From: a bacterium
GTDB taxonomy: Bacteria > Patescibacteriota > Minisyncoccia > Phycocordibacterales > UBA2100
DNA length: 64,000 bases
NCBI GenBank assembly: GCA_030674455.1
Contig: JAUSGQ010000044.1
Span: forward strand, 13,080 to 77,079
Direction of reading: 5' to 3'
Positions 1 to 47,172 of this stretch are shown here, in pieces. Made by a program: the position numbers and the translations under genes. The notes below the pieces were generated by a model. That model had not been told where the DNA came from and searched no databases. It was given only the letters and a program-made list of their open reading frames with translations. Position 1 is the first letter of the stretch, and every line of letters starts with the position of its first letter.

Positions 1-48
1 GCGTCAATATATTATTCGACATAATGTTGTATTTAGAATTTATTAAAA

Positions 49-77
49 CCTATAACCTGACACCTATAACCTAAAAC
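49..77 (-). promoter_or_regulatory. AGGTTATAGG-type tandem leader motif before a probable rpsR start at the window edge
   Basis: Plus strand: aacctataacctgacacctataacctaaaac. Confidence 0.4.
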
Positions 78-533: not shown

Positions 534-566
534 GTAGGTTTTAGGTTTTAGGCACTAGGCAATATT
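534..566 (-). promoter_or_regulatory. AGGTTTTAGG/CACTAGGCAAT leader motif abutting the ssb start
   Basis: gtaggttttaggttttaggcactaggcaatatt. Confidence 0.4.
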
Positions 567-1141: not shown

Positions 1142-1155
1142 GTAGCCGGCACTGT

Positions 1156-1187
1156 AACATAGGCAATGGGCACTAGGCAATAGGCTG
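1156..1187 (-). promoter_or_regulatory. related leader motif upstream of rpsF (shares TTGCCTAGTGCC with the ssb leader)
   Basis: acataggcaatgggcactaggcaataggctg. Confidence 0.4.
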
Positions 1188-1248: not shown

Positions 1249-1280
1249 ATAAACACTCACGGTCGTGATAGTTTATGGCT
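1249..1280 (+). repeat. 30-bp palindromic direct repeat, left copy (ccataaacaCTCACGGTCGTgatagtttatgg); overlaps start codon of the PaaX-like gene
   Basis: Near-identical copy at 1912..1945. The CTCACGGYCGTG core recurs on both sides of the paralog at 43.1 kb. Confidence 0.6.
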
Positions 1281-1859
1281 ATGGGGAATATCGAACGAGA
1301 AGCGAGAAGAAAGCGAGTCCGCGGATATGTACAAAAAGCCGTACTCGCAACCATAGCGATATCAGGAGTGCTGCTTGTTACCATGGCTGCGCCGAATACG
1401 TTACAGCTCCTAAAATACGTGCCCGGCATCAGACGCTACCGTTTTAACCAGCAGGCAGAAACTGCCCTTAGTCGCCTTGCACAGAAGAAGTGGATTACAT
1501 TTGAGAGGCACAATGGAAAGCGATTTGCTCGCATTACCGAGGCCGGGAGACATGCGTTCATGGCAGAGAACCGAAAAAACAAATTGATACCTCTCATAAA
1601 AAGACGATGGGATAAAAGATGGCGAGTAGTTATTTTCGATGTCCCAGAAAAACGCAGAGACGTGCGCGACCGGCTACGCTCCATGATGCGCGAGTTTGGT
1701 TTTGAGCATTTGCAAGACAGCGTATGGGTATATCCTTATGACTGCGAAGATATGGTTGCGCTTCTCAAGGCGGAACTTAAAATCGGATTTTCCGTACTAT
1801 ATATGGTTGTTGAACAAATCGAGAATGAGAAATACCTGAAAGAGAGATTCGACTTGTAA
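1275..1859 (+). CDS. PaaX-like small regulator with N-terminal TM helix (paralog of 43159..43728)
   Basis: 194 aa. TM helix, winged-helix-like segment (..RFARITEAGRHAF), then the motif RRWDKRWRVVIFDVPE..R..LR..GF..LQDSVWVYPYD shared with PaaX C-domains. Clear paralogy to the second copy. Confidence 0.6.
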   Translation: MAMGNIEREARRKRVRGYVQKAVLATIAISGVLLVTMAAPNTLQLLKYVPGIRRYRFNQQAETALSRLAQKKWITFERHNGKRFARITEAGRHAFMAENRKNKLIPLIKRRWDKRWRVVIFDVPEKRRDVRDRLRSMMREFGFEHLQDSVWVYPYDCEDMVALLKAELKIGFSVLYMVVEQIENEKYLKERFDL

Positions 1860-3295: not shown

Positions 3296-3345
3296 GAAGC
3301 TCCAAAATCCAAGCTCCAAATCTCAAACAAAAAGAATGCAAAACT
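3296..3345 (+). repeat. ~50-bp repeat copy 1 (gaAGCTCCAAAATCcAAGCTCCAAATCtcaaacaaaaagaat..)
   Basis: Near-identical to 4645..4700 and inverted relative to 3711..3760. Contains a tandem 13-mer AAGCTCCAAAWYC. Confidence 0.7.
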
Positions 3346-3710
3346 CATAACTTAGATAAAATGGAGCTAAAAATCTTTAATAACTCGATTGATTCTCTGA
3401 TTAAACCATCGCGCTCCACGCCAAGCTCTTCTGGTATCTGTTCGAACATTTGCAACCAATATCGCGTTTCTTTAGCTTCCTTTCGACAAATCTTTACGCG
3501 CATACCAAAGTCTTTTTTACTCAGAGACTCGTTGGCCTCGATATAATTCGCACCAACATATCCCGAAGAGCGAACCACTTGCTTTGCGTCTTCATTGTTT
3601 ACGATATCTCTTGGCAACTTTTTGATGAAACGTCTGACATTCAGCGCGAGAAGTCGCGTGCGTTCTTCTAAATCATTTTTGTATTGTTTATGTTCTTGAG
3701 GTTTATTCAT
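3345..3710 (-). CDS. four-helix-bundle protein (23S rRNA IVS-encoded protein / bAvd-like family)
   Basis: 121 aa. Family motifs such as QMFEQIPEELGVERDGLIRESIELLKIF, GYVGANYIEANES and RYWL. Bracketed by inverted copies of a ~45-bp repeat. Confidence 0.8.
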   Translation of the reverse strand: MNKPQEHKQYKNDLEERTRLLALNVRRFIKKLPRDIVNNEDAKQVVRSSGYVGANYIEANESLSKKDFGMRVKICRKEAKETRYWLQMFEQIPEELGVERDGLIRESIELLKIFSSILSKL

Positions 3711-3760
3711 TTTGAGTTTGTTTGGATCTTGGAGCTTGAGTTTTGGAGCTTCTACTTTAT
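3711..3760 (-). repeat. ~50-bp repeat copy 2 (inverted); forms the 5' leader of the four-helix-bundle gene
   Basis: Reverse complement reads gaagctccaaaactcaagctccaagatccaaacaaactcaaa followed by ATG. Confidence 0.7.
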
Positions 3761-4636
3761 TCAGGATGAATAAAGTAGCCCTATTGCAAGGAATGATACG
3801 ACAATCGCGAGTATTTTGCGAAGGTTGATGTGGTCTTTATACCACCATACGGAAAGGACGATTGGTATAAGAATATAGTGCGCATGGATGACATACACGA
3901 GACTGACGAGGCCGGTAGTTAATGCCTTAATAAGTGTATACGTGGCAACAGTACCGAGGGCTGCTGCAATGAATCCTAGGTAAACATCCCTTTTGTCGAA
4001 TGTGATTCCTTGGGAAAGTCGAGTCCCTCTCTGCTTTACGAGAATTGCCGCGGAAGATACCGTACCTGCAATCTGCGATATTCCCACAATGAATAAGGCG
4101 GCCGATTCATATGAAGTCGCTTGTTTAACGAAAATCACCGAAGTTGCCGTGAGAATGGTCGAGAGAACGACGAATATCATTCCCTGACGCAGGTTGTTCT
4201 GACGATGATGTTCGGCCGAAGAGATGAGAAGAAGAGGTACAAGAAAACTCGTCCCGATTCCAATGTATTGTTGAGTCGTAAGCGGGTCACGCAACAGCAG
4301 TACCCCTAATATTACGACTAGGAGCGGTCCTAGAACCTTATTTATCGGGAAATATATAACGCTATCGATATGTTTTAGAGCTTCAATACGAAAGTAATTC
4401 CCGATTCCGTGTAGCGCTCCGCTTGCCAGCGCAAAAATTCCTATAATGAGCCATGCGCTCGGCACATCAGAGTAAAGGAACAAAATAATGAAAACTGTTA
4501 TGGCAGAAAACCCGTACATCAAGAGTCCGTTGAAAGCCGAGTCCCTTTTTTCTTGCGCGACAACTTTCTGGAAGAATAACTGTATGCCGCCAAATATAGT
4601 GGCAGCAATTGTCCAATAAAATGTCGTTTGGTCCAT
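3761..4636 (-). CDS. EamA/DMT-family transporter
   Basis: 291 aa, about 10 TM helices in a two-fold EamA-like arrangement. Confidence 0.65.
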   Translation of the reverse strand: MDQTTFYWTIAATIFGGIQLFFQKVVAQEKRDSAFNGLLMYGFSAITVFIILFLYSDVPSAWLIIGIFALASGALHGIGNYFRIEALKHIDSVIYFPINKVLGPLLVVILGVLLLRDPLTTQQYIGIGTSFLVPLLLISSAEHHRQNNLRQGMIFVVLSTILTATSVIFVKQATSYESAALFIVGISQIAGTVSSAAILVKQRGTRLSQGITFDKRDVYLGFIAAALGTVATYTLIKALTTGLVSLVYVIHAHYILIPIVLSVWWYKDHINLRKILAIVVSFLAIGLLYSS

Positions 4637-4644
4637 ATTTTATT

Positions 4645-4700
4645 AAATCCCAAAATCCAAGCTCCAAATCTCAAACAAAAAGAATTCAAAACTCATAATT
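4645..4700 (+). repeat. ~50-bp repeat copy 3
   Basis: ccaaaatccaagctccaaatctcaaacaaaaagaattcaaaactcataat. Sits between the metG stop and the DMT start. Confidence 0.7.
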
Positions 4701-8935: not shown

Positions 8936-9045
8936 GCATTAGTATTCTGTATTTTGTATTCCGTATTCAGTATATTGAACTGGAACCTTTGAATCTCCTA
9001 GTGTGGCCATACTGAATACTGTATACCGAATACCGCATACTGCAT
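8936..9045. repeat. large imperfect hairpin of GTATTCN heptad repeats (..GTATTCAGTAT ... ATACTGAATAC..) upstream of glyS
   Basis: Left arm agtattctgtattttgtattccgtattcagtat; right arm atactgaatactgtataccgaataccgcatactgca. Related copy at 36322..36396. Confidence 0.6.
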
Positions 9046-11514: not shown

Positions 11515-12090
11515 CTATAAGTGTGTTTCTGAAATGGCCTGATTGATGGATGAAAGAAGCTTTTCGCGTACAAGTTCGGCCTCGCGCAAATGTTCATCCG
11601 CGTATGCCGTGTGTGTAAGAAGAGCGCTTTTTAGCGCTTCATTGGAAATATATCCGAGCGCATAGAGAACACGCGCAACGCACACAAGTTCTATGGTCGC
11701 CCACGCTTCGCACTTCTCCTGCGCAAGGGTGGAGCGCGCTTCGCACAAAATATCGAAAAGCCCTTTGTTCGCCTCCTCTCCCGCGACAAACCGCACGACA
11801 AGTCCTGCGATGCGCGCGAATGCCTGCATGCCCTTTATGTCTCTCACTTTTGAACTTCCTAAAGCAGTTGCTCCCGCCAGGCGCCAGCCCTGCTTTCCTT
11901 TGACGAGAGAAATGCTTGCGAAAGAATAATTCTGCAGAGCATATCGCATTTTAGATTTTACCGAGCGGATTCCTCTGCCCCGCGCTCGCACAAGCCCGAA
12001 GTCGCGCGTGTAGAGCGCGAGCACGCGGTCTGATTCTCCGATTTCGCGGCTTGCGAGCACCAGCGCGTCGGTGTGATACTTTTGGTACAT
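11515..12090 (-). CDS. recO: DNA repair protein RecO (short form)
   Basis: N-terminal OB-fold signature (DALVLASREIGESDRVLALYTRDFG). Confidence 0.6.
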   Translation of the reverse strand: MYQKYHTDALVLASREIGESDRVLALYTRDFGLVRARGRGIRSVKSKMRYALQNYSFASISLVKGKQGWRLAGATALGSSKVRDIKGMQAFARIAGLVVRFVAGEEANKGLFDILCEARSTLAQEKCEAWATIELVCVARVLYALGYISNEALKSALLTHTAYADEHLREAELVREKLLSSINQAISETHL

Positions 12091-12094
12091 GCGG

Positions 12095-12130
12095 AGCAGG
12101 TTATAGGTTTTAGGTTATAGGTTTTAGGGA
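12095..12130 (-). promoter_or_regulatory. AGGTTATAGGTTTTAGG tandem motif between ileS stop and recO start (overlaps ileS last codons)
   Basis: aggttataggttttaggttataggttttaggg. Confidence 0.4.
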
Positions 12131-15094
12131 AATCTTTGTATTCGTTGCTTTTTGGATAGCATCGAGATTTTTTTCGATAACAGCACGGTTTTCTTGCGCG
12201 ACCGTAATGGAAACACTCCCGCGTTCTCCCGCTCTCATCTTTGCCGCTTTGCGTGCGTCTTGCACAAGGCGCACGACATCCCGCACAATTCCCTCTTCCT
12301 TTAACTCCGGCGTAAGTTCAATATCAAGCGATACAACGGATGTCCCGCCATCAGAGCTTTCCAACACGACTTCTTTTACGTTGACTTCATCGGCAATGAG
12401 CGGCGCCACATCCTTCCAAAAAGGAATTTCTGCCCCTTTGTGCTTTATGGTGAGCTTTGCGAGCGGCTGGCGAACTTTAATTCCCGCTTCTGAACGCTGC
12501 ATCAGAGCCATCGTGACAAAACCTCTTGCGGCCATCATGACGGCTAAAATTGCGGGCGCATCAAAATCAAGTTTCGGCATTTCCGGCCACGACGCGAGGT
12601 GTACGCTCTCCTCGTCTTCTTCCTCGCGAACATCCTGGAACAAATGCTCGGCAAGAAACGGCATAGACGGAGCAATGACCCGCGAGAGCGTGTGGAGCAC
12701 ATATCGCAATGTTGCGAGAGCGGCCTTTTTGTCTGCTCCGTCCTCTTTAATTCGAACGCGCGAGCGGCGCAAGTACCAAACGGAAAGGTCGTCAATAAAA
12801 AGCGCGAGCGGACGCACCGCCTTGTCCAACTGATACTTTTCATATCCTTCGGTAGTTTCTCCTATCAAAGCCGCGAGGCGGGTTAGAATCCATCTGTCCA
12901 AAATATTCGTACTCTTATAGTCGCGCGGGGTATCGTTTTCATAAAGTTTATAAAACGCGAGTACATTATTGAGCCGTCCGATATTTTTCTTTGCGACTTC
13001 ATTCACTCCGCTTTCCGCAAAGCACAAGTTTTCGGCTTGCACGACTGGCGATGATAATAGATAGAGCCGTAACGCGTCCGCGCCGTATTTATCAACAACC
13101 TCCATCGGGTCGGGATAATTATTGAGCTTTTTCGACATTTTCTTGCCGTCTTCGGCCATGACGATGCCTGTCACGATGCAGTGCTTGAATGCCTCCTTGT
13201 CGAAGAGCGCGCCCATGAGTACGTGCTGGTAGTAAAACCACGCGCGGCACTGGTCCTGCGCCTCGGCGATGAAATCAGCAGGTACGCGTTTTTTTAACGT
13301 CGCTTCGTTTTCCTTCGGGTAGTGGAGAATAGCAAACGGCACCGAGCCGGAATCAAACCATGTGTCCAGCACATCAGGAATCCTCTTCATTTTTCCGCCA
13401 CACTCGCACGATACCGTAATCTCATCAACAACATCCTTGTGAAGGTCTGTAACTTTTGTCCCGCTCGCTTTTTCTAGCTCTAGAGCAGAACCGAAAACTC
13501 GCTCCGCTTTGCACTTTTCGCATCTCCATATGGGAATGGTATTTGCCCAAAAGCGCTGGCGTGAAATTGACCAGTCGCGCGCGCCTTTGAGCCATTCGCC
13601 GAACCTTCCATCCTTGATGTGCGCCGGAGACCATTCGATATTTTCCGCAGTTTTCAAGAGTTTGTCTTTGATTTTCGTGACCGCAACAAACCACGAGGAT
13701 GTGGCATAGTTGAGAAGCGGCGTATCACAGCGCCAACAATGCGGATATGAGTGCGTAATATTTTCTTTTAAAAAGAGTGTTCCATGTTCCTGCAAATATT
13801 TCAGTATCGCAATATCCGCGCCAAGCCGAACCTTATCGTCTTCAGATTGAGGTTTAACCTCAATTCCCGCGAAATCAGCCACTTCCGGCCTGAATGTTCC
13901 GTCCATATTGACATGCTGAACGAATGGCAAATTCTTTTCTTTGCCAAGGGCCATGTCGTCTTCACCGAAAGCAGGAGCGATATGCACGATGCCGGTTCCC
14001 GTTTCTGTCGTCACGAAGTCTGCGGCATAAACTTTCCAACCGTTCTCGCGATTCTTGAGCGATTCATCTTTTGAGTAGTAATCAAAGAGAGGTTCGTATT
14101 CAAGGCCGACAAGTGCGTTTCCTTTTATTTTTTGCTTTATCTCAAATCTTTCTGGCACTCTTTCAAGCGCAACAATGTACTGTTCATCGTCATTCAACGA
14201 CATTCCAACATTCTCAAGAATGTTGGAATGTTCCGAGGAAATGGCGGAGGTGAGCGCATATGTAATATCAGCTCCAACCGCAAGAGCAACGTTCCCGGGC
14301 AGAGTCCACGGAGTCGTCGTCCACGCGAGTAGGTACACTTCGCCTTTCAATCCGAGCTTTTCCGGATTCTTTACCTTGAACTTTACCGTCACGGAAATAT
14401 CCTTCACATCCTTGTACCCGTCAGCAACTTCGCCCTGGCTCAATGTCGTCTCACAGCGCGGGCAAATGTGCATCGAGCGATAACTTTCGTAAATAAGTCC
14501 GTCGTCATAGAGCTTCTTGAAAGCCCACCACTCGCTCTCCATGTAGGCGAAGTCCATCGTGCGGTATGGATTCTCCATGTCGGCCCATCGGCCGAAGCGC
14601 GGAATGATGCGCTCCCATTCGTGAATGAATGTGAATATGCGCTCTCGGCAGAGGTCATTAAATTTCTTCACGCCCATCGCTACGATGTCTTTCTTCGATT
14701 TTGTGCCTATTTCTTTTTCGACGATGTTTTCGATAGGAAGCCCGTGGCAGTCCCAACCCCACTGACGCTCGACGTGAAATCCCTGCATCGTTTTATAGCG
14801 CGGAATTACGTCTTTAACCGCGCTCTGCAGAAGATGCCCGTAGTGCGGAAGCCCTGTAGCAAAAGGCGGGCCATCATAAAAAACGTAGTCGCCCTTTGGC
14901 GCGCTTCGCTCAAGCGATTTCTTGAAAATGTCATTTTTGAGCCAAAACTCCAAAATAGTTTCCTCGCGCAACGCTGTCTCGGATTTCTTCCCTTGCCCTC
15001 CTGTAGCTTTACTGTGTCCGTCCGTAGCCTTGTGCGGAGGAGGAGCGGAGGAGGGCTCGCGCTTCGCAGTTTCGCTCTTTGGAACCTCTTTCAT
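12110..15094 (-). CDS. ileS: isoleucine--tRNA ligase
   Basis: 994 aa with HYGH, KMSKK and an editing domain. The ~45-aa low-complexity N-terminal extension may be upstream of the true start. Confidence 0.9.
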   Translation of the reverse strand: MKEVPKSETAKREPSSAPPPHKATDGHSKATGGQGKKSETALREETILEFWLKNDIFKKSLERSAPKGDYVFYDGPPFATGLPHYGHLLQSAVKDVIPRYKTMQGFHVERQWGWDCHGLPIENIVEKEIGTKSKKDIVAMGVKKFNDLCRERIFTFIHEWERIIPRFGRWADMENPYRTMDFAYMESEWWAFKKLYDDGLIYESYRSMHICPRCETTLSQGEVADGYKDVKDISVTVKFKVKNPEKLGLKGEVYLLAWTTTPWTLPGNVALAVGADITYALTSAISSEHSNILENVGMSLNDDEQYIVALERVPERFEIKQKIKGNALVGLEYEPLFDYYSKDESLKNRENGWKVYAADFVTTETGTGIVHIAPAFGEDDMALGKEKNLPFVQHVNMDGTFRPEVADFAGIEVKPQSEDDKVRLGADIAILKYLQEHGTLFLKENITHSYPHCWRCDTPLLNYATSSWFVAVTKIKDKLLKTAENIEWSPAHIKDGRFGEWLKGARDWSISRQRFWANTIPIWRCEKCKAERVFGSALELEKASGTKVTDLHKDVVDEITVSCECGGKMKRIPDVLDTWFDSGSVPFAILHYPKENEATLKKRVPADFIAEAQDQCRAWFYYQHVLMGALFDKEAFKHCIVTGIVMAEDGKKMSKKLNNYPDPMEVVDKYGADALRLYLLSSPVVQAENLCFAESGVNEVAKKNIGRLNNVLAFYKLYENDTPRDYKSTNILDRWILTRLAALIGETTEGYEKYQLDKAVRPLALFIDDLSVWYLRRSRVRIKEDGADKKAALATLRYVLHTLSRVIAPSMPFLAEHLFQDVREEEDEESVHLASWPEMPKLDFDAPAILAVMMAARGFVTMALMQRSEAGIKVRQPLAKLTIKHKGAEIPFWKDVAPLIADEVNVKEVVLESSDGGTSVVSLDIELTPELKEEGIVRDVVRLVQDARKAAKMRAGERGSVSITVAQENRAVIEKNLDAIQKATNTKISLKPIT

Positions 15095-15152
15095 CGCTCT
15101 ATCCTAGCAGAAAAACCGCTATTCTGCGGGTTTAACTCTTTTCTAACAGCCA

Positions 15153-17985: not shown

Positions 17986-18062
17986 GTCATTGCGAGCTAT
18001 GCGAAGCAATCTAGAGGACTCTGTTGAATCATTCTGGATTGCTTCGCTGCGCTCGCAATGAC
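17986..18062. repeat. palindromic repeat family member a (GTCATTGCGAGCtatGCGAAGCAATC...GATTGCTTCGCtgcGCTCGCAATGAC)
   Basis: 77-bp near-perfect hairpin downstream of the 18081..18731 gene. Family members also at 26488, 30089, 40403 and a degenerate one at 31296. Confidence 0.7.
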
Positions 18063-18731: not shown

Positions 18732-18871
18732 ACCCGGTTAGTACAATTTCGAATAATTCCTGCCGTAGATGCGCCAGCGAATATTTGGAAAGACTGCTTA
18801 ATCAATTTTCTTTTCATATGATGTTGATTTGTTCATAACAAGGCGATTCGAAATTGTCCTACCGGGCATAT
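18729..18871 (+). mobile_element. MITE copy 1 (gene-less derivative of the GIY-YIG TIR element) with CATA target-site duplication
   Basis: TIRs CCCGGTTAGTACAATTTCGAAT (18733..18754) and ATTCGAAATTGTCCTACCGGG (18846..18866). Flanking direct repeats CATA at 18729-18732 and 18867-18870. The interior keeps an MPGRTISNR... remnant of the GIY-YIG ORF. Confidence 0.8.
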
Positions 18872-18983
18872 CGTTACAATTATAACAAACTGGTACAATT
18901 CTGTCAATATTCTCAAGAAATTTGGCTAAAAACGCGTTCGGGCGCACTATTGCCTCTTCTTAATAAATAGTAGCTTAATTACT

Positions 18984-21448: not shown

Positions 21449-21588
21449 TATGCCCGGTAGGACAATTTCGAATCGCCTCATATGACTATTCGCCATCACA
21501 TGAAAAGAAGATTGTTGGAGCGGTCGTTACAGATGTCCGCAGGTGTAACTACGGCAGAAATTATTCGAAATTGTACTAACCGGGTATG
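21449..21588 (-). mobile_element. MITE copy 2 (inverted relative to copy 1) with TATG target-site duplication; exactly fills the lysC-dapB spacer
   Basis: TIRs CCCGGTAGGACAATTTCGAAT (21453..21473) and ATTCGAAATTGTACTAACCGGG (21563..21584). TATG at 21449-21452 and 21585-21588; the latter contains the dapB ATG. Confidence 0.8.
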
Positions 21589-23218: not shown

Positions 23219-23415
23219 AGAAATTGTTATGCGCGAAGCAAATTACAAGTTCTTTACCCGCCCAAATTTCCAGCTCCAATCTGGTATGCACGGAACAACG
23301 TCTTCAGAGACCCATCTACACAGATTGCCGAAAGCAATGACATTAGCGGAAGCAGGAAATTTAGGCGGGTCTAAGATTTATTAAGCTCGCTTCGCTTACT
23401 AATTAAATCTAAGAC

Positions 23416-24612
23416 ATGGCAAAAATTAATTCGCGGTACCAAAAAGTCTCGCAGGGATATTTCTCCACCGAGATTGCAAAACGGGCCAAACCGTTCTTAG
23501 ATTCGCACCCCGGCGCGGAGATTTACCGGCTCGGAATCGGCAACACGACAGAAGCAATCGTCCCTTCTGTCATAGAGGGCCTTCGCAAAGGAGTCGAAAA
23601 ATTGGCCAAAACAGAGACTTATACGGGGTACGGAGATGAGCAGGGCGATTCACGACTGCGCGAAGCAATTTCCAAATGGTACGCAAAACGAGCGGTGAGC
23701 GTAGAGCCCTCGGCAGTTTTTGTAAGCGACGGCGCAAAGAGCGACTGTGCCAATATTCCCTCTATATTTTCCGATGACGCCGTCGTGGCCGTGAGCGACC
23801 CCGGATACCCGGTACATCGGGAAGCCGCTGTGATATCAGGAAAGAAAGTTGTCTCTATGGAATGCCTGGAGAAAAATAACTTCATGCCGACGATGCCCGA
23901 GCGTGCTGACCTGCTATACATTTGCAGCCCTAATAATCCGACTGGGACGGTCGCCACAAGAAAACAATTAGAGTCGTTCGTCGCATACGCAAGAAAAAAT
24001 AAAGCGATAATAATTTTTGACGCCGCCTATTCTGAATACGTTAGCGACCAAGCACTACCGCGCAGCATCTACGAGATAGAGGGCGCGAAATCGTGCGCCA
24101 TAGAAATACAGAGTCTTTCTAAAGCCGCCGGCTTCACGGGAGTGCGCTTGGGTTGGACTATCGTGCCGAAAGAGCTGCAAACCGAAGACGGCGCGGAAGG
24201 AATGTTGAATAGGTTCTGGTCGAGGAGGCAGACCACGATGTTTAACGGCGCTTCAAACATCGCGCAGGAAGGAGGACTTGCCGTTCTCTCCCCAAAAGGA
24301 CAGCGCGAGACGCACGAACAAGTCGCTTACTACATGGAAAACGCCCGCATCATACGAGAGGGACTTAGCGCCGCAAAAATGACGATACATGGAGGCGTAG
24401 ATGCTCCATACATCTGGTTGCAATGCCCTCGAGGCCTTTCCTCGTGGGAATTCTTCGACGAGCTACTCACGAAAGCACATGTTATTGCAACGCCGGGGAT
24501 AGTTTTCGGCAAAGGCGGCGAAGGCTACATGCGCATATCTGCATTCGGCCACCGAGAAGATGTAGAGAAGGCAGTACATTCAATACGGAAAAACTTTGGT
24601 ACTATTGCTTAA
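23416..24612 (+). CDS. dapL: LL-diaminopimelate aminotransferase
   Basis: 398 aa fold-type-I aminotransferase. The N-terminus INSRYQKVSQGYFSTEIAKR resembles DapL ([20 protein letters not shown]). Operon context with dapA/dapB/lysA. Confidence 0.75.
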   Translation: MAKINSRYQKVSQGYFSTEIAKRAKPFLDSHPGAEIYRLGIGNTTEAIVPSVIEGLRKGVEKLAKTETYTGYGDEQGDSRLREAISKWYAKRAVSVEPSAVFVSDGAKSDCANIPSIFSDDAVVAVSDPGYPVHREAAVISGKKVVSMECLEKNNFMPTMPERADLLYICSPNNPTGTVATRKQLESFVAYARKNKAIIIFDAAYSEYVSDQALPRSIYEIEGAKSCAIEIQSLSKAAGFTGVRLGWTIVPKELQTEDGAEGMLNRFWSRRQTTMFNGASNIAQEGGLAVLSPKGQRETHEQVAYYMENARIIREGLSAAKMTIHGGVDAPYIWLQCPRGLSSWEFFDELLTKAHVIATPGIVFGKGGEGYMRISAFGHREDVEKAVHSIRKNFGTIA

Positions 24613-26487: not shown

Positions 26488-26565
26488 GTCATTGCGAGCA
26501 ACGCGAAGCAATCCAGTGGATTGTACAAATTACTCTAGTTTGCTTCGCTAAGCTCGCAAAGACGG
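26488..26565. repeat. palindromic repeat family member b (GTCATTGCGAGCaacGCGAAGCAATCC...TTTGCTTCGCtaaGCTCGCAAAGAC)
   Basis: Directly downstream of rplK. Confidence 0.65.
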
Positions 26566-26590: not shown

Positions 26591-27013
26591 TTATTCGGTC
26601 GTGATACCCATCGAGCGCGCAGTTCCGGCGATGATTTTCTTTGCTTGTTCCAAATTATTCGCGTTCAGGTCTTCCATCTTCTCTTTCGCGATGTCTTCCA
26701 CTTGCTTGTTGGTGAGCTTCCCTACCTTGTTGGAATGCGGCTTGTCGGAACCCTTTTCGAGACCGGCGGATTTGAGAATCAAGCGAGATGCCGGCGGCTT
26801 CTTGATTATGAAATCAAACGAGCGGTCGCTGTAAACCTTCATTAATACGGGAAGGATGCTTCCGGCCATCGCCTTGGTCTTTGTGTTGAACTGGTTGACG
26901 AATTCGCCGATGTTGACGCCCGCAGGCCCCAAGGCGGTTCCCACTGGCGGAGCAGGAGTCGCGGCACCTGCCGGAATCTGAAGCTTTATGATTTTTGTTA
27001 CTTGTTTGGCCAT
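26591..27013 (-). CDS. rplK: 50S ribosomal protein L11
   Basis: [35 protein letters not shown].. Confidence 0.9.
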
Positions 27014-27192
27014 GTTAGATTTTGTTACGAGCGAAGCGAATTAGAAAATCTTACACCCAGCACCTTTTACGCCTAAAAAGCTGTTTGAACGATGATAATA
27101 CTTTGAAAATCTGTTTTGGGCAATGTGGTTCATAGTGAAGTTAAAGGTGCTGGGTAGTGAAAAATATACTTACTTCGTTCGTTATTTTTCTA

Positions 27193-27738
27193 CTATACCC
27201 TCTGCACCTGGTCGGCTTCGAGTTCGACTGGCGTCTCTCTTCCGAACATCGGAACTAACACCTTAACCTTTCCACGCTCTTCGTCAATCTCCCCCACTTT
27301 TCCTTCCAAATCTTTAAAAGGTCCGTCGATTATTACCACCGCATCGTCGAGTGCGAGATCAATCGCGTGGCGCACCGTGTCGCCGTCGGTCCGCTTCAAG
27401 ATTTTGTCCACCTCTTCTTGCGAAAGCGGGACCGCCTGATTTGCCGTGCCGACGAATCCGGTAACCTGCGGCGTGTTGCGGACAACGCTCCATGCATCGT
27501 CGGTGGCTATCATGTCCACGAGGACGTAGCCGGGGAAAATCTTCTCCTTCACCTCCGTCTTGCGGCCGTTCTTTATCTTTATTTTTTTTTCCGTAGGAAC
27601 TACGACGGAGAATATTTTGTCTTTCATGCCGAAGGAATCAATGCGCTGCTTTAGGTTGCGGGCTACCGCATCTTCATAGCCGGAATACGTGTGGATTGCG
27701 TACCATTGTCTTTCAGAACCGTGTGTTTGTTTGGACAT
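27193..27738 (-). CDS. nusG: transcription termination/antitermination factor NusG
   Basis: NGN domain (WYAIHTYSGYEDAV) and KOW (GKVGEIDEERGKVKVLVPMFGRETPVEL). Confidence 0.9.
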   Translation of the reverse strand: MSKQTHGSERQWYAIHTYSGYEDAVARNLKQRIDSFGMKDKIFSVVVPTEKKIKIKNGRKTEVKEKIFPGYVLVDMIATDDAWSVVRNTPQVTGFVGTANQAVPLSQEEVDKILKRTDGDTVRHAIDLALDDAVVIIDGPFKDLEGKVGEIDEERGKVKVLVPMFGRETPVELEADQVQRV

Positions 27739-27740
27739 AG

Positions 27741-27775
27741 GGGTAGGTTATAGGTGTTAGGTTACAGGTTATAGG
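27741..27775 (-). promoter_or_regulatory. tandem AGGTTAYAGGT motif abutting the nusG start
   Basis: gggtaggttataggtgttaggttacaggttatagg. Confidence 0.4.
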
Positions 27776-27778
27776 AAA

Positions 27779-28060
27779 TTACGGAGTGGTTGTGTCGGAG
27801 GTTGTTGCCGCTGCAGGAGTTGTAGTCGAGAGATTGATATTATCAATCGTAACTGCCGGAACGTTTGCTACAGGCAGGGTTTCTAGCACGCTGCGCAATC
27901 CGGTAGTAAAAATGTAGTCAAAGAGGCCGAGGTATAGAGCAATGAAAACGGAAAGCAAAATGACGATTATCGTATACACGATGGTCTGAAGCTGCGTAGG
28001 CCAAGCCACGTGCCGTAATTCCCCGCGCGTATCTTTGAGGTACTGAAAGAAGGATGACAT
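27779..28060 (-). CDS. secE: preprotein translocase subunit SecE (with Thr-rich C-terminal tail)
   Basis: 93 aa. TRGELRHVAWPTQLQT followed by a TM helix. Position upstream of nusG-rplK. Confidence 0.7.
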   Translation of the reverse strand: MSSFFQYLKDTRGELRHVAWPTQLQTIVYTIIVILLSVFIALYLGLFDYIFTTGLRSVLETLPVANVPAVTIDNINLSTTTPAAATTSDTTTP

Positions 28061-28105
28061 AGGTTACAGGTGCTAGGTTTTAGGGAATAGGTTATAGGTT
28101 ATAGT
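28061..28105 (-). promoter_or_regulatory. tandem AGGTTAYAGG motif abutting the secE start
   Basis: aggttacaggtgctaggttttagggaataggttataggttatag. Confidence 0.4.
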
Positions 28106-28130: not shown

Positions 28131-28150
28131 AAAAACCCCTCGCGGGGTTT
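28131..28150 (-). terminator. Rho-independent terminator (ccccgcgagggg + U-run on minus strand)
   Basis: GC hairpin 28136..28147 adjacent to an A5 run on the plus strand. Confidence 0.5.
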
Positions 28151-28214
28151 AAATACATGATAATCCAATGATGTTTAAAGTCAAGGGACAAAAAGTACTA
28201 CCATTGAGAACCAT

Positions 28215-28248
28215 TTAAAAAAACGTGGGGCAGATCCGGCTGCCCCAC
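28215..28248 (-). terminator. Rho-independent terminator (gtggggcagccggatctgccccac + U8)
   Basis: Perfect 9-bp GC-rich stem followed by 8 U on the minus-strand transcript. Downstream of the 28280..28618 gene. Confidence 0.7.
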
Positions 28249-28279
28249 ACAAAATCCCTGCCTGACCCGACGACCCTGG

Positions 28280-28618
28280 TCAGCGTCCGAACCCTGCTTT
28301 CAGCTGCACTGATTGTTTTTCTTTCTCGAGTGTCTCGAGTTTTTTGTCGATGATGGCCGCAGTTGAACGCACTTTGCGCGCCCATTCGGGCTCATGCATG
28401 CTCGTCAGCTTTCGAGCAACTTCGTGCAACCTATTGCTGGCCGGTTCGAGTTCCTCCGCCGTGAATTTCGCATGCTTTAGGGTTTCACACGCTTCGGTGA
28501 TGGTTTGCCCAATTCCGACCCTAACATCAACCGCGCTTTCGATAGCAGCGATTGCCGTACCTGTGACGTCGTCTGGCATAATTCCTCCAATAAGGACCAG
28601 TGGAAACACTTGCACCAC
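28280..28618 (-). CDS. hypothetical protein
   Basis: 112 aa, ordinary composition. Followed by two tandem terminators on its own strand. No recognisable family. Confidence 0.4.
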   Translation of the reverse strand: MVQVFPLVLIGGIMPDDVTGTAIAAIESAVDVRVGIGQTITEACETLKHAKFTAEELEPASNRLHEVARKLTSMHEPEWARKVRSTAAIIDKKLETLEKEKQSVQLKAGFGR

Positions 28619-28799
28619 GATATTCTGTGGCTTAAATTCACTCTATCAGCGGCAATTTCTGTGTCAATGTTGGGATAGTAAAAAAGCCGCCTCGCTATCT
28701 TCAATAGATAAACGCTCGAATTTCCCATCCCAATACTTAGTTTTTTAACTAAGTATTGGGATTCATAACAATGTAAATCTCCGAGGACTACCCTCGGAA

Positions 28800-30088: not shown

Positions 30089-30128
30089 GGATTGCTTCCC
30101 GCCACGCTATGCTCTCGGTCGCAATGAC
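30089..30128. repeat. palindromic repeat family member c (half element GGATTGCTTC...GGTCGCAATGAC)
   Basis: Shares AACTCCTGGATTGCTTC with member d. Preceded by the hairpin CACTTGGCGGTTGAACCGCCAAGTG (30031..30057). Confidence 0.55.
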
Positions 30129-36267: not shown

Positions 36268-36321
36268 TTATATGTATAAGACGACCGGGTGCGCGGCAAC
36301 TTACCGGGAATCTGGAATCGG

Positions 36322-36396
36322 TATTCTGTATATAGTATTCAGTATGCTTTTTCTGCATTTATACTGAATACACGATACTGTATATACACGATACTT
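36322..36396. repeat. second GTATTCAGTAT...ATACTGAATAC heptad hairpin, upstream of the ECF sigma gene
   Basis: ggtattctgtatatagtattcagtat...atactgaatacacgatactgtatatacacgatact. Confidence 0.6.
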
Positions 36397-40402: not shown

Positions 40403-40490
40403 GTCATTGCGAGGAATGAGGAGGAACGACGAATGACGAAGCAATCCAGGGTAACCTTCAGAACTCCTGGATTGCTTCGCTTCGCTCGAC
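40403..40490. repeat. palindromic repeat family member d (GTCATTGCGAGG...GAAGCAATCCAGG...CCTGGATTGCTTCGCTTCGCTCGAC)
   Basis: Sits between two convergent genes. Confidence 0.65.
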
Positions 40491-41148: not shown

Positions 41149-41202
41149 ACGGCAAAAATACCACTATGACACGTGCGCGGATAGAGGCCTATTCCCTGAG
41201 GC

Positions 41203-41706
41203 CTATTCCCTGATGAAGTCCGCATTTATAATCGGCTCTGAACCTCCTCCAATAAGTTTTCCCGTTACTTTTATGATATCGCCGGCGGTGATGTCTGAAA
41301 GTTCTGCTTTTTCGCCCTTCTGTGAAAAGATTTTTGTATACTTTTCGGTTTGCACTGTCCACATGAAACGCTGTCCGCCCCAATTTTGGCCGATGCGAAT
41401 GCGCTTGCCTTCAATCGAAAGCACCTGCGCACCGCGCAAAAGAACGAGGCCATTGTTCGCGATATGCATTTCAAGCATCGGAGCATTGGCGGATGAGGTT
41501 GCTCCCGTTGCCGGAGAATCAGATGCTGTCGCCCCCACCGAAGAAACAAAACTTGCTTTGTCGGAGCGCGCGCGTGAAAGAGCCTTATCGTTAATATTAA
41601 AGAAAAGTAAGCCGGTAACAGTGAGAAGATACGCAATAGAAAGTGCCGAGACTGAAAGTGTTTTGCCCGATAAGCCGTACCTTTGTATTGCCAAATTCAT
41701 GTTCAT
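41203..41706 (-). CDS. hypothetical exported/anchored protein
   Basis: 167 aa. N-terminal TM/signal and a Ser/Ala/Thr-rich linker; no recognisable family. Confidence 0.4.
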   Translation of the reverse strand: MNMNLAIQRYGLSGKTLSVSALSIAYLLTVTGLLFFNINDKALSRARSDKASFVSSVGATASDSPATGATSSANAPMLEMHIANNGLVLLRGAQVLSIEGKRIRIGQNWGGQRFMWTVQTEKYTKIFSQKGEKAELSDITAGDIIKVTGKLIGGGSEPIINADFIRE

Positions 41707-46865: not shown

Positions 46866-47172
46866 ACCCGGTTAGTACAATTTCGAATTATTCCGTCCGT
46901 AATAATCTTTCAATCGCTTTGCAAGAAAGCGACGGCCTCCCGTGGTTTTGAAATATTGTTCTCGACGTTTTGCGTCAACCAGAGAACGACATGCTTCGTA
47001 GTACGCAAGTATAAAAGGCCGTCGTGGTGCTGTGGCAAAACTTTTACCCTGCTGGTGTTGATCCATGCGCTTTCGCAGATCACTCGTATATCCAATATAT
47101 TGCTTATAGTCTTTCATACTCTGCAAGACATAGACATAATAAAAGCGATTCGAAATTGTCCTACCGGGCATA
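46863..47172 (-). mobile_element. TIR-bounded GIY-YIG element (autonomous-looking copy): 22-bp terminal inverted repeats, 4-bp CATA target-site duplication, single 99-aa GIY-YIG gene
   Basis: TIR-L CCCGGTTAGTACAATTTCGAAT (46867..46888), TIR-R ATTCGAAATTGTCCTACCGGG (47148..47168). CATA at 46863-46866 and 47169-47172. The first 8 codons of the GIY-YIG ORF (MPGRTISN) are encoded by the TIR itself. Confidence 0.8.
46872..47171 (-). CDS. GIY-YIG nuclease family protein (YhbQ/UPF0213-like)
   Basis: YYVYVLQS..YIGYTSDLRKRMDQHQQGKS..RRPFILAYYEAC..AKRREQYFK matches the GIY-YIG motifs. Confidence 0.8.
   Translation of the reverse strand: MPGRTISNRFYYVYVLQSMKDYKQYIGYTSDLRKRMDQHQQGKSFATAPRRPFILAYYEACRSLVDAKRREQYFKTTGGRRFLAKRLKDYYGRNNSKLY

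Follow-up and report, generated by a model that had tools for sequence, protein, structure and literature searches.

Tandem heptanucleotide repeats of the AGGTTAYAGG type in short intergenic gaps of a Candidatus Kaiserbacteria genome

The stretch of DNA analysed here, hereafter the window, comprises 64,000 nucleotides of contig JAUSGQ010000044.1 (NCBI GenBank assembly GCA_030674455.1, positions 13,080 to 77,079), and the element in question is the motif AGGTTAYAGG, which recurs in tandem beside several of its genes. The NusG encoded in the window shares 88–96% identity with proteins that carry the names Candidatus Kaiserbacteria, Parcubacteria or Paceibacterota, and the 80 genome loci retrieved via NusG are those of Kaiserbacteria and other Paceibacteria. 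Taking both results into account, the window comes from a genome of the candidate phyla radiation (CPR/Patescibacteria), and as judged from sequence its host is Candidatus Kaiserbacteria of the Paceibacteria lineage. The neighbouring minus-strand genes were named via NCBIfam. They are ssb (71–529, ATG at 529), an S6/rpsF domain inside an open reading frame (ORF) at 593–1429, a RecO-like gene (11515–12090, ATG at 12090), ileS (12110–15094), rplK (26591–27013), nusG (27193–27738, ATG at 27738) and secE (27779–28060, ATG at 28060). An initial annotation had placed tandem AGGTTAYAGG copies 0–10 nt before six minus-strand starts, those of secE, nusG, recO, rpsF, ssb and rpsR, and had regarded them as a dedicated translation-initiation signal of ribosome-related genes.

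The motif itself is real: the window has 14 occurrences of AGGTTWYAGG where 0.25 would be expected, and none of 100 shuffled sequences reached 14. Five clusters are present (49–72, 536–552, 12098–12128, 27745–27775 and 28061–28098). Tandem arrays in the window were called with Tandem Repeats Finder (TRF) and with a lag-autocorrelation scan at periods 4–12, and TRF resolved each of the five clusters as an array of period 7 or 14. The unit is CCTANNN/NNNTAGG, which we designate family A, and AGGTTAYAGG is the commonest local version of the 7-base repeats. Family A is found at seven places in the window and in two further arms in L206, a short contig from the same organism whose sequence is identical to that of the window. 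The arrays before secE, nusG, recO and ssb are CCUANNN repeats on the minus-strand mRNA, with the last CCU at 0, 6, 7 and 6 nt from the ATG, respectively. The proximity to start codons described initially thus stands for these four genes, but not for rpsF and rpsR.

The secE array consists of about six units at 28061–28104 (minus strand) and directly adjoins the ATG. On the mRNA the units read CUAUAAC, CUAUAAC, CUAUUCC, CUAAAAC, CUAGCAC, CUGUAAC and CU. Upstream on the same strand are a sigma-70-like promoter (TTGACT-16-TATCAT, 28157–28184) and a GC hairpin (AAACCCCGCGAGGGGUUU, 28133–28150) at the predicted 5′ end of the secE leader. The hairpin is kept, with a change in the loop, in the loci L081–L083, and the L081 counterpart of the promoter reads TTGACT..TACTAT. 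Because promoter and conserved hairpin both sit upstream, the array is part of the 5′ untranslated region. We scanned the whole window against Rfam at gathering thresholds and obtained zero matches; a search of the region upstream of secE at a lax E-value gave two chance-level matches only, well below gathering, and ARAGORN found no tRNA or tmRNA in the window. A known leader, riboswitch or tRNA was therefore rejected as an explanation of the arrays.

Further upstream, the region between kbl and secE contains a promoter-like site (TTGACA-16-TAGAGT with TG, 28667–28640, minus strand) and a strong terminator (28250–28223, minus strand), which enclose a 112-aa ORF (28280–28618). The ORF has no Pfam match, the region 28215–28670 has no significant Rfam match, and the homologous region of L081 differs in sequence. 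A non-coding RNA was considered here, and the ORF with its own promoter and terminator fits better.

The remaining family A arrays lie in intergenic gaps or across gene ends. The nusG array (27745–27775, minus strand) occupies the 40-nt spacer between secE and nusG (27739–27778), and its final unit puts TAACCT at −12 to −7. The array at the ileS/recO junction (12098–12129, minus strand) includes the ileS stop codon (12110–12112), in agreement with the initial annotation. In the rpsF–ssb spacer, the ssb array (534–560, minus strand) reads GCCUAGU GCCUAAAA CCUAAAA CCUAC, and between ssb and rpsR an array at 45–73 (minus strand) runs in the opposite orientation, with the mRNA reading UAGGUUA UAGGUGUC AGGUUA UAGGUUUU. 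A family-A-like array on the plus strand (CCTATTC CCTGAGG CCTATTC CCT) was found at 41188–41211.

The in-frame start codon of rpsF is at 1141 (ATG). The 278-aa ORF at 593–1429 is an artefactual extension of the gene, and a protein with a PaaX-middle/Cas2-like domain is encoded divergently at 1275–1859 (plus strand). The heptamers at this site (CCTATTG, CCTAGTG, CCCATTG and CCTATGT, 1157–1184, minus strand) are variants and not AGGTTAYAGG, and they end 15 nt upstream of the ATG. They overlap the −35 element (TTGCCT) and the spacer of the rpsF promoter, whose extended −10 element TGTTACAGT (1151–1159, minus strand) lies 9 nt before the ATG and is of the same class as a TGnTAnnnT signal present throughout the lineage. 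This layout, with TTGCTT or TTGCCT, 18 nt, TAAAGT or TACAGT preceded by TGn, 9 nt and ATG, is kept in the true orthologues in L210, L212 and L213. Genes bearing TGTTACAGT in L014 and L032 were excluded as rpsF orthologues by BLASTP. If transcription starts after the extended −10 element, the heptamers are absent from the mRNA. At rpsR, the array opens inside the ssb stop codon, reads UAGGUUAUAGG on the mRNA and terminates 26 nt ahead of the ATG of rpsR, which is at position 22; the gene (S18, 66 aa) was confirmed on L206. The proposal that the element precedes each gene of the rpsF–ssb–rpsR string, and hence is a translation-initiation-region signal and not a promoter, fails at both ends of the string, as the rpsF copy is conserved promoter DNA and the rpsR copy is inverted.

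Repetition in steps of seven is a general feature of this DNA. Between periods 4 and 12, lag-autocorrelation detected arrays in the window at period 7 only. In a sample of 1.34 Mb, consisting of the window and the 80 Paceibacteria loci, 36 arrays had period 7 and 19 had period 14, with 1–7 each at the other periods from 4 to 13. The units were diverse (CCTAAAA, TTGAAAA, ATAAGCT, AATAAGC, CGAAGCA, TCAAAAG, CAAATCN and others). Complementary arrays in inverted order often filled the entire gap between a stop and the next start codon, as in L030 (four pairs), L015, L014, L063 and L066, and inverted pairs were also found in the window (8942–9043 and 36319–36394) and in L206–L209. Arrays of 7-bp repeats with several unrelated units thus populate very short gaps here and in other Paceibacteria, either as single arms or as inverted pairs that span the distance from the upstream stop to the downstream start.

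Besides family A, the window contains families B (four arms) and C (three arms), and all three lie at or between gene ends. One inverted pair of family B (GAATACN/GTATTCN, 8942–9043, minus strand) has a GGUAUUC-type arm at 9007–9043 and a GAAUACN-type arm at 8942–8975. It forms a hairpin (−31.6 kcal/mol) that fills the 114-nt spacer before glyS. The reported absence of the element from tRNA synthetase genes accordingly holds for family A, but glyS is preceded by arrays of other heptamers. A second family B pair (GUAUUCA / UGAAUAC, 36319–36394, minus strand) lies upstream of a gene for an extracytoplasmic function (ECF)-type sigma factor. Family C (GGAGCTT/AAGCTCC, 3302–3752, minus strand) has an AAGCUCC-type arm at 3716–3752 and a UUGGAGC-type arm at 3302–3328, which bracket a four-helix-bundle gene (3345–3710); the joined flanks give a stem of about 40 bp (−45.4 kcal/mol). 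A direct copy of the arm at 3302–3328 is located at 4650–4676 (minus strand), upstream of an EamA gene (3761–4636). A gene of this kind in the loop of a long inverted repeat resembles the intervening sequence (IVS) cassettes of the TIGR02436/23S rRNA IVS protein. Unlike those cassettes, which lie in rRNA, the family C cassette is situated between protein-coding genes and its stem is made of heptamer arrays.

The EamA transporter gene and the four-helix-bundle gene (TIGR02436/IVS-protein family) together stand between cysS and tatD, which are direct neighbours in the syntenic relative L213 with 1 nt between them, and the insert is flanked by direct copies of GTTTGAGATTTGGAGCTTGGATTTTGG (4650–4676 and 3302–3328). 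The only other four-helix-bundle homolog in the fetched loci (L159, positions 1–600) is likewise embedded in heptamer arrays, so that the association is seen in two of two cases. There, copies of a leader of about 60 nt stand on either side of the gene, and the gene that follows has an inverted array in front of it. In L145 (12750–13290; contig of 53% G+C), a higher-order module consisting of an AGG arm, a CCT arm and GC-rich hairpins is repeated at least three times in tandem.

The orthologous junctions of relatives were then compared with those of the window. Most Kaiserbacteria have no array at either of two junctions: the stop codon of secE touches or overlaps the nusG ATG (as in CAATAAT ATG), and ileS abuts recO. 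In the nearest relatives, L081–L083, whose NusG is 96% identical, the secE array is again present and ends in ..AACCT ATG, with five units in another order; merely a decayed array precedes nusG, and L085 (95%) has none. In L213, ileS and recO are separated by 2 nt and the spacer in front of glyS measures 13 nt; the window arrays at these two places are therefore insertions. The rpsF–ssb gap of L213 contains a homologous family A array (CCTAGTA CCTAGAA CCTAACA), and its ssb–rpsR gap starts with (TAGCNNN)3 and ends in AAAACCT ATG. Another close relative, L207–L209 (SSB 87% identical), carries different heptamers in the same three gaps: a (GTTTACA)4..(TGTAAAC)4 hairpin between rpsF and ssb, of a kind that also takes the place of the family A array in L210, (TTTCAAA)n between ssb and rpsR, and (CTNGTAG)n..(CTACNAG)n after rpsR. 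In L206, the gap after rpsR, which separates convergent genes, has a family A inverted pair far from start codons. Certain gaps are thus favoured places while the repeat sequence is not conserved, and arrays are gained and lost between close relatives without being tied to gene function. Unit number did not vary among near-identical contigs: L081, L082 and L083 have the same five units with one base change, and the window does not differ from L206. A phase-variable contingency locus was ruled out by this constancy and by the housekeeping nature of the genes.

A metagenome scan with CCTAWAACCTAWAACCT brought up at least 120 contigs of 26–74% G+C, from which contigs with telomere-like (CCCTAAA)n were left out of the counts. 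All counts that follow are among the matches listed and are indicative. An ATG-initiated ORF lay within 20 nt downstream of the array in the sense of the CCT strand 28 times and of the AGG strand seven times (p = 5e-4). When the window and L081 were removed, the numbers were 22 and seven (p = 0.008). The commonest distance from the last CCT to the ATG was 6–7 nt. ORFs ending at or in an array did so on the UAGG strand in 44 cases and on the CCUA strand in 16, and paired arrays had the order 5′-AGG arm..loop..CCT arm-3′ 18 times against four in reverse, with a few contigs supplying more than one pair. The genes downstream included those for O-antigen ligase, DUF695/RraB, YdjM, CRR7, carbonic anhydrase, DNA ligase, nucleotidyl- and glycosyl-transferases, a Mur ligase and adenylosuccinate synthetase (PurA), and no translational gene was among them. 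In L170, (CCTAAAA)3 stands six nt before the ATG of the CRR7 gene, whose family is one of cyanobacteria and plants. The long arrays of (CCCTAAA)n type that lie at the ends of some contigs (L144, L165, L166, L196, L130 and others) are probably plant-type telomeric repeats of eukaryotes and not bacterial.

On the sense strand the arrays have 0–2 G in 19–44 nt. No AUG, GUG or UUG was seen in them, and UAA recurs every 7 nt, in all three frames. We folded the region from −45 to +20 of 43 genes with ATG starts, and the array-preceded genes ranked 1, 2, 3, 4, 5 and 7 among the least structured (0 to −4 kcal/mol versus a median of −7.3 kcal/mol; Mann–Whitney p = 6e-5). The secE, nusG and recO arrays are single arms with no complementary arm nearby, and the two arrays flanking ssb can pair at −24.4 kcal/mol.

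Start signals of the lineage were examined in 230 Kaiserbacteria gene starts from the window and loci L001–L018, L022 and L032. Shine–Dalgarno (SD) sequences were not apparent, with GGAG and GAGG not enriched but depleted at −20 to −1. ACCT and CCTA rise slightly in this interval (19 and 23), partly owing to the arrays. The lack of an SD sequence at the motif sites, pointed out initially, is correct but ordinary, as the lineage as a whole shows no SD signal. TANNNT had its first T at −12 in 41 cases and at −13 in 16, over a background of about four; 25 of these 57 genes have TGn before it, where 6% would be expected, and T is preferred at −1 (50%). Since a TANNNT peak at −12/−13 with TGn is the signature of extended −10 promoters, Kaiserbacteria look as though leaderless mRNAs transcribed from such promoters are widespread. 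Examples in the window are TGCTAGGAT-AGAGCG-ATG before ileS (15095–15110), which is kept in L012, and TATAAT-CGTTGAC-ATG before 43159. No 16S rRNA gene, nor any other rRNA gene, is present in the window or any fetched locus. The ACCU of the motif matches the canonical CACCUCC tail of 16S rRNA (CACCUCCU) in sense and is not complementary to it, so the motif cannot pair with that tail.

Other repeated elements were noticed in the window. A near-identical leader, (A)ATTATTCGAAATTGTACTAACCGGGT, stands directly before the ATG at 18732–18757 (minus strand), 21560–21585 (plus strand) and about 46866–46891 (minus strand). The genes behind it (a 216-aa protein unknown in function, dapB and a methyltransferase) are mutually unrelated, and related inverted copies (CCCGGTAGGACAATTTCGAAT) occur at 18860–18890 and 21455–21480; the leader may be a shared operator or promoter. 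A second type of start-proximal element is a small hairpin ending at the ATG, TAAGATTT..loop containing TCGCTTCGCT..AAATCTAA(C/GAC) ATG, which precedes rplK (27014–27060) and the gene at 23416 (23370–23415, plus strand). A dispersed repeat, GTCATTGCGA..GAAGCAATCC, some copies of which are palindromic, is found at 17986–18062, 26488–26514, 30089–30128 and 40403–40478. We take it to be the source of the spurious 'LRFARND'-type ORFs in many environmental genomes, and the thymidylate kinase ORF may owe part of its apparent 5′ end to this repeat.

Taken together, these results raised the possibility, to which we assign a probability of roughly 60%, that AGGTTAYAGG represents the dominant family of heptanucleotide repeats resembling the short tandemly repeated repetitive (STRR) sequences of cyanobacteria, and that its G-poor CCUANNN strand is kept as an unstructured spacer. 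The ancestral gaps would have been about 0–15 nt long, and an array arising in such a gap would touch both neighbouring genes. The arrays would thus adjoin start codons because these gaps measured only a few nucleotides. Arrays may then have been retained preferentially when the nearly G-free CCUANNN strand was on the mRNA just 5′ of the start. Unable to fold, devoid of start codons and with UAA stops in all frames, this strand would be a harmless or mildly helpful spacer, across which ribosomes could still start, or restart after the upstream stop, without an SD sequence. Selective retention of this kind is suggested by the orientation bias together with the unstructured, start-codon-free and stop-rich nature of the strand. 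The situation resembles SD-independent initiation and termination–reinitiation, in that a G-poor, structure-free stretch with no SD precedes the ATG and arrays are found where relatives couple genes directly (secE/nusG and ileS/recO), although neither process needs a repeat or any particular sequence. Inverted pairs would serve as RNA hairpins between cistrons, with a role in stability, processing or termination. RNase III has been kept in CPR bacteria (PMC12641178), which makes processing or stabilising hairpins a plausible reading of the paired arrays.

Several points weigh against this interpretation. Within roughly 90 kb of this genome family A turns up at eight or more places, and it also occurs in contigs of 26–74% G+C. 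Pure local slippage is insufficient to explain so wide a recurrence, which is a hint of copying from one locus to another or of sequence-specific selection. At least some arrays persist, as the ssb array is common to the window and L213. Among the matches listed, nine of 23 non-window cases have the ATG at 5–8 nt (p = 0.02), where a passive spacer predicts no preferred distance. A streamlined genome is also expected to purge useless DNA. The orientation counts rest on crude ORF calls and the metagenome loci were selected by the motif itself, so that both are indicative only, and the role as an unstructured spacer is what the sequence would suggest by inference only.

Alternatively, the last unit (TAACCT or AAACCT) could serve as the −10 hexamer of a promoter whose transcript is leaderless and begins at the ATG. 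The frequency of TANNNT at −12/−13 in the lineage (57 of 230 genes, 25 with TGn) would favour such a promoter, and TAACCT lies at −12 for nusG and −13 for recO, and AAACCT at −12 for ssb and for nusG of L030. As in extended −10 leaderless promoters, the last unit supplies A at −11 and T at −7 in nusG, recO and ssb, the 6–7 nt that follow are GC-rich (ACCCCT, GCTCCGC, ACTCGT) like local discriminators, and nusG of L081 has TACTAT at −11. However, these hexamers are weak, matching TATAAT at two or three of six positions with neither TGn nor a −35 element, and a consensus promoter scan called no two-hexamer promoter in the arrays. The secE array adjoins its ATG downstream of a canonical promoter and is outside this geometry, which other start-adjacent heptamer families fit inconsistently. 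The reverse orientation offers TAGGTT as well, leaving the orientation bias unaccounted for, and because relatives couple recO and nusG to the upstream gene, no promoter is needed for either. We consider a promoter function of the arrays unlikely.

Equally, start-proximal CCUANNN arrays might be the 3′ arms of hairpins that pair with UAGGNNN arms for RNase III processing, protection of mRNA ends or termination, single arms being remnants or long-range partners such as the arrays that bracket ssb. The excess of AGG arm..CCT arm pairs (18 versus four among the matches listed), including one after rpsR in L206, agrees with this possibility, as do the pairing of the ssb flanks, the enclosure of the four-helix-bundle gene within a stem of about 40 bp, the RNase III of CPR bacteria and the precedent of STRR hairpins. 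Taking into account that the secE, nusG and recO arrays have no complementary arm nearby, that these three are structure-free when folded locally, and that a hairpin reaching the start codon should hinder rather than help initiation, this is improbable as the explanation of the arrays.

A more far-reaching proposal is that heptamer arrays form a functional intergenic module with a defined register in those CPR bacteria that do without SD sequences, and perhaps in cyanobacteria as well. Here an RNA- or single-stranded-DNA-binding factor that reads in 7-nt steps, or templated copying, would create and homogenise the families, the UAGG arm would mark the end of a cistron, and the CCUA arm 6–7 nt before the ATG would be an entry site for the ribosome or polymerase. 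We regard such a module as a speculative option with low odds. If true, it would be a genuine alternative to the layout of SD sequences and intergenic promoters.

The dedicated element originally proposed, a sequence-specific landing pad for the ribosome or an S1-like protein in place of an SD sequence, or an autoregulator site, on translation-machinery genes, is very unlikely. The sense-strand bias (28 versus 7) and the SD-like spacing of 6–7 nt among the matches listed, the lineage without SD sequences, the unstructured start regions and the recurrence of family A at several housekeeping genes of the window would be in line with it, and orientation and position are indeed tied to start codons. 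On the other hand, the genes served are not specific to translation, either in the window, where they include recO, ssb and secE, or elsewhere, and rplK, ileS and glyS lack a family A array. Most orthologous junctions are free of arrays, unrelated heptamers replace the array in a close relative, rpsF has its copy in promoter DNA and rpsR in inverted orientation, and the motif cannot pair with the canonical 16S tail. AGGTTAYAGG is not a regulon signal for translation genes. The initial annotation is thus partly confirmed as an observation. As an interpretation it is partly supported, only as regards the way arrays are oriented near start codons and the missing SD sequence.

The arrays could also be binding sites, repeated in tandem, for a protein whose register on RNA or single-stranded DNA is 7 nt. 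Such a protein, for example a cold-shock/OB-fold or HutP-like one, would impose the period and spread the units. The strict period of 7 across many units and phyla and the retention of the CCT/AGG core while four positions vary are compatible with a binder of this type, and UAGG-N3 equals UAG-N4, which we take to be the pattern of the HutP site. No candidate protein was identified, however, the units are too diverse for one sequence-specific binder, and the UAG-bearing strand is antisense at five of six window sites, making this explanation highly doubtful. As for a Rho utilisation (rut) site, a C-rich, G-poor unstructured RNA of about 60–80 nt or more, the composition of the arrays (0–2 G) fits but they are too short at 19–44 nt.

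In terms of known repeats, the STRR sequences are the closest. In cyanobacteria these repeats have a 7-bp unit and can form intercistronic hairpins, for example between hupS and hupL (PMC2670836). Their function is not established, and transcript stability or translational coupling has been proposed (PMC2670836). The repeats described here share with them the 7-bp unit in short imperfect tandem arrays, the presence of several unit families per genome, each at many intergenic places, and the intercistronic hairpins (the glyS spacer and the flanks of the four-helix-bundle gene), to which the secE, nusG and recO arrays are exceptions. Only the host taxon, by which the original account was restricted and which is no feature of structure, separates them from the STRR description: a CPR lineage with a genome below about 1 Mb in place of the large heterocystous cyanobacteria. 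In detail, the units are CCTAWAA, GAATACN and GGAGCTT and not CCCCAGT and others, and the arrays, unlike those of STRRs, are short (3–7 units). They are also biased in orientation relative to start and stop codons. To our knowledge, such a bias has not been reported for STRRs.

There is also a likeness to the repetitive extragenic palindromic (REP) sequences and bacterial interspersed mosaic elements (BIMEs) of enterobacteria, which are likewise short intergenic repeats that form hairpins, occur many times in a genome, inside operons as well as behind stop codons, and have been credited with protecting or punctuating mRNA. A REP, unlike the tandem heptamers here, is one palindrome of about 35 bp, and REPs are linked to REP-associated tyrosine transposases (RAYTs). 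In general annotation no transposase was noticed in the window, where no systematic search was made, and the arrays vary in length and unit. We found nothing on point in the literature on heptanucleotide repeats, SD use or leaderless mRNAs in CPR/Patescibacteria.

Repeats of the STRR type have been known in cyanobacteria for decades with no established function, and those described here represent a new phylum and new units for a known kind of repeat. Here they have been inserted, in a streamlined CPR genome, at places where relatives have gaps of 0–15 nt, and their strand bias relative to start and stop codons argues that they are not mere junk. The missing SD sequence and the TANNNT signal at −12/−13 in about a quarter of Kaiserbacteria genes are useful for calling gene starts in CPR genomes, and such a streamlined genome offers a small, simple system for asking what heptamer repeats do.

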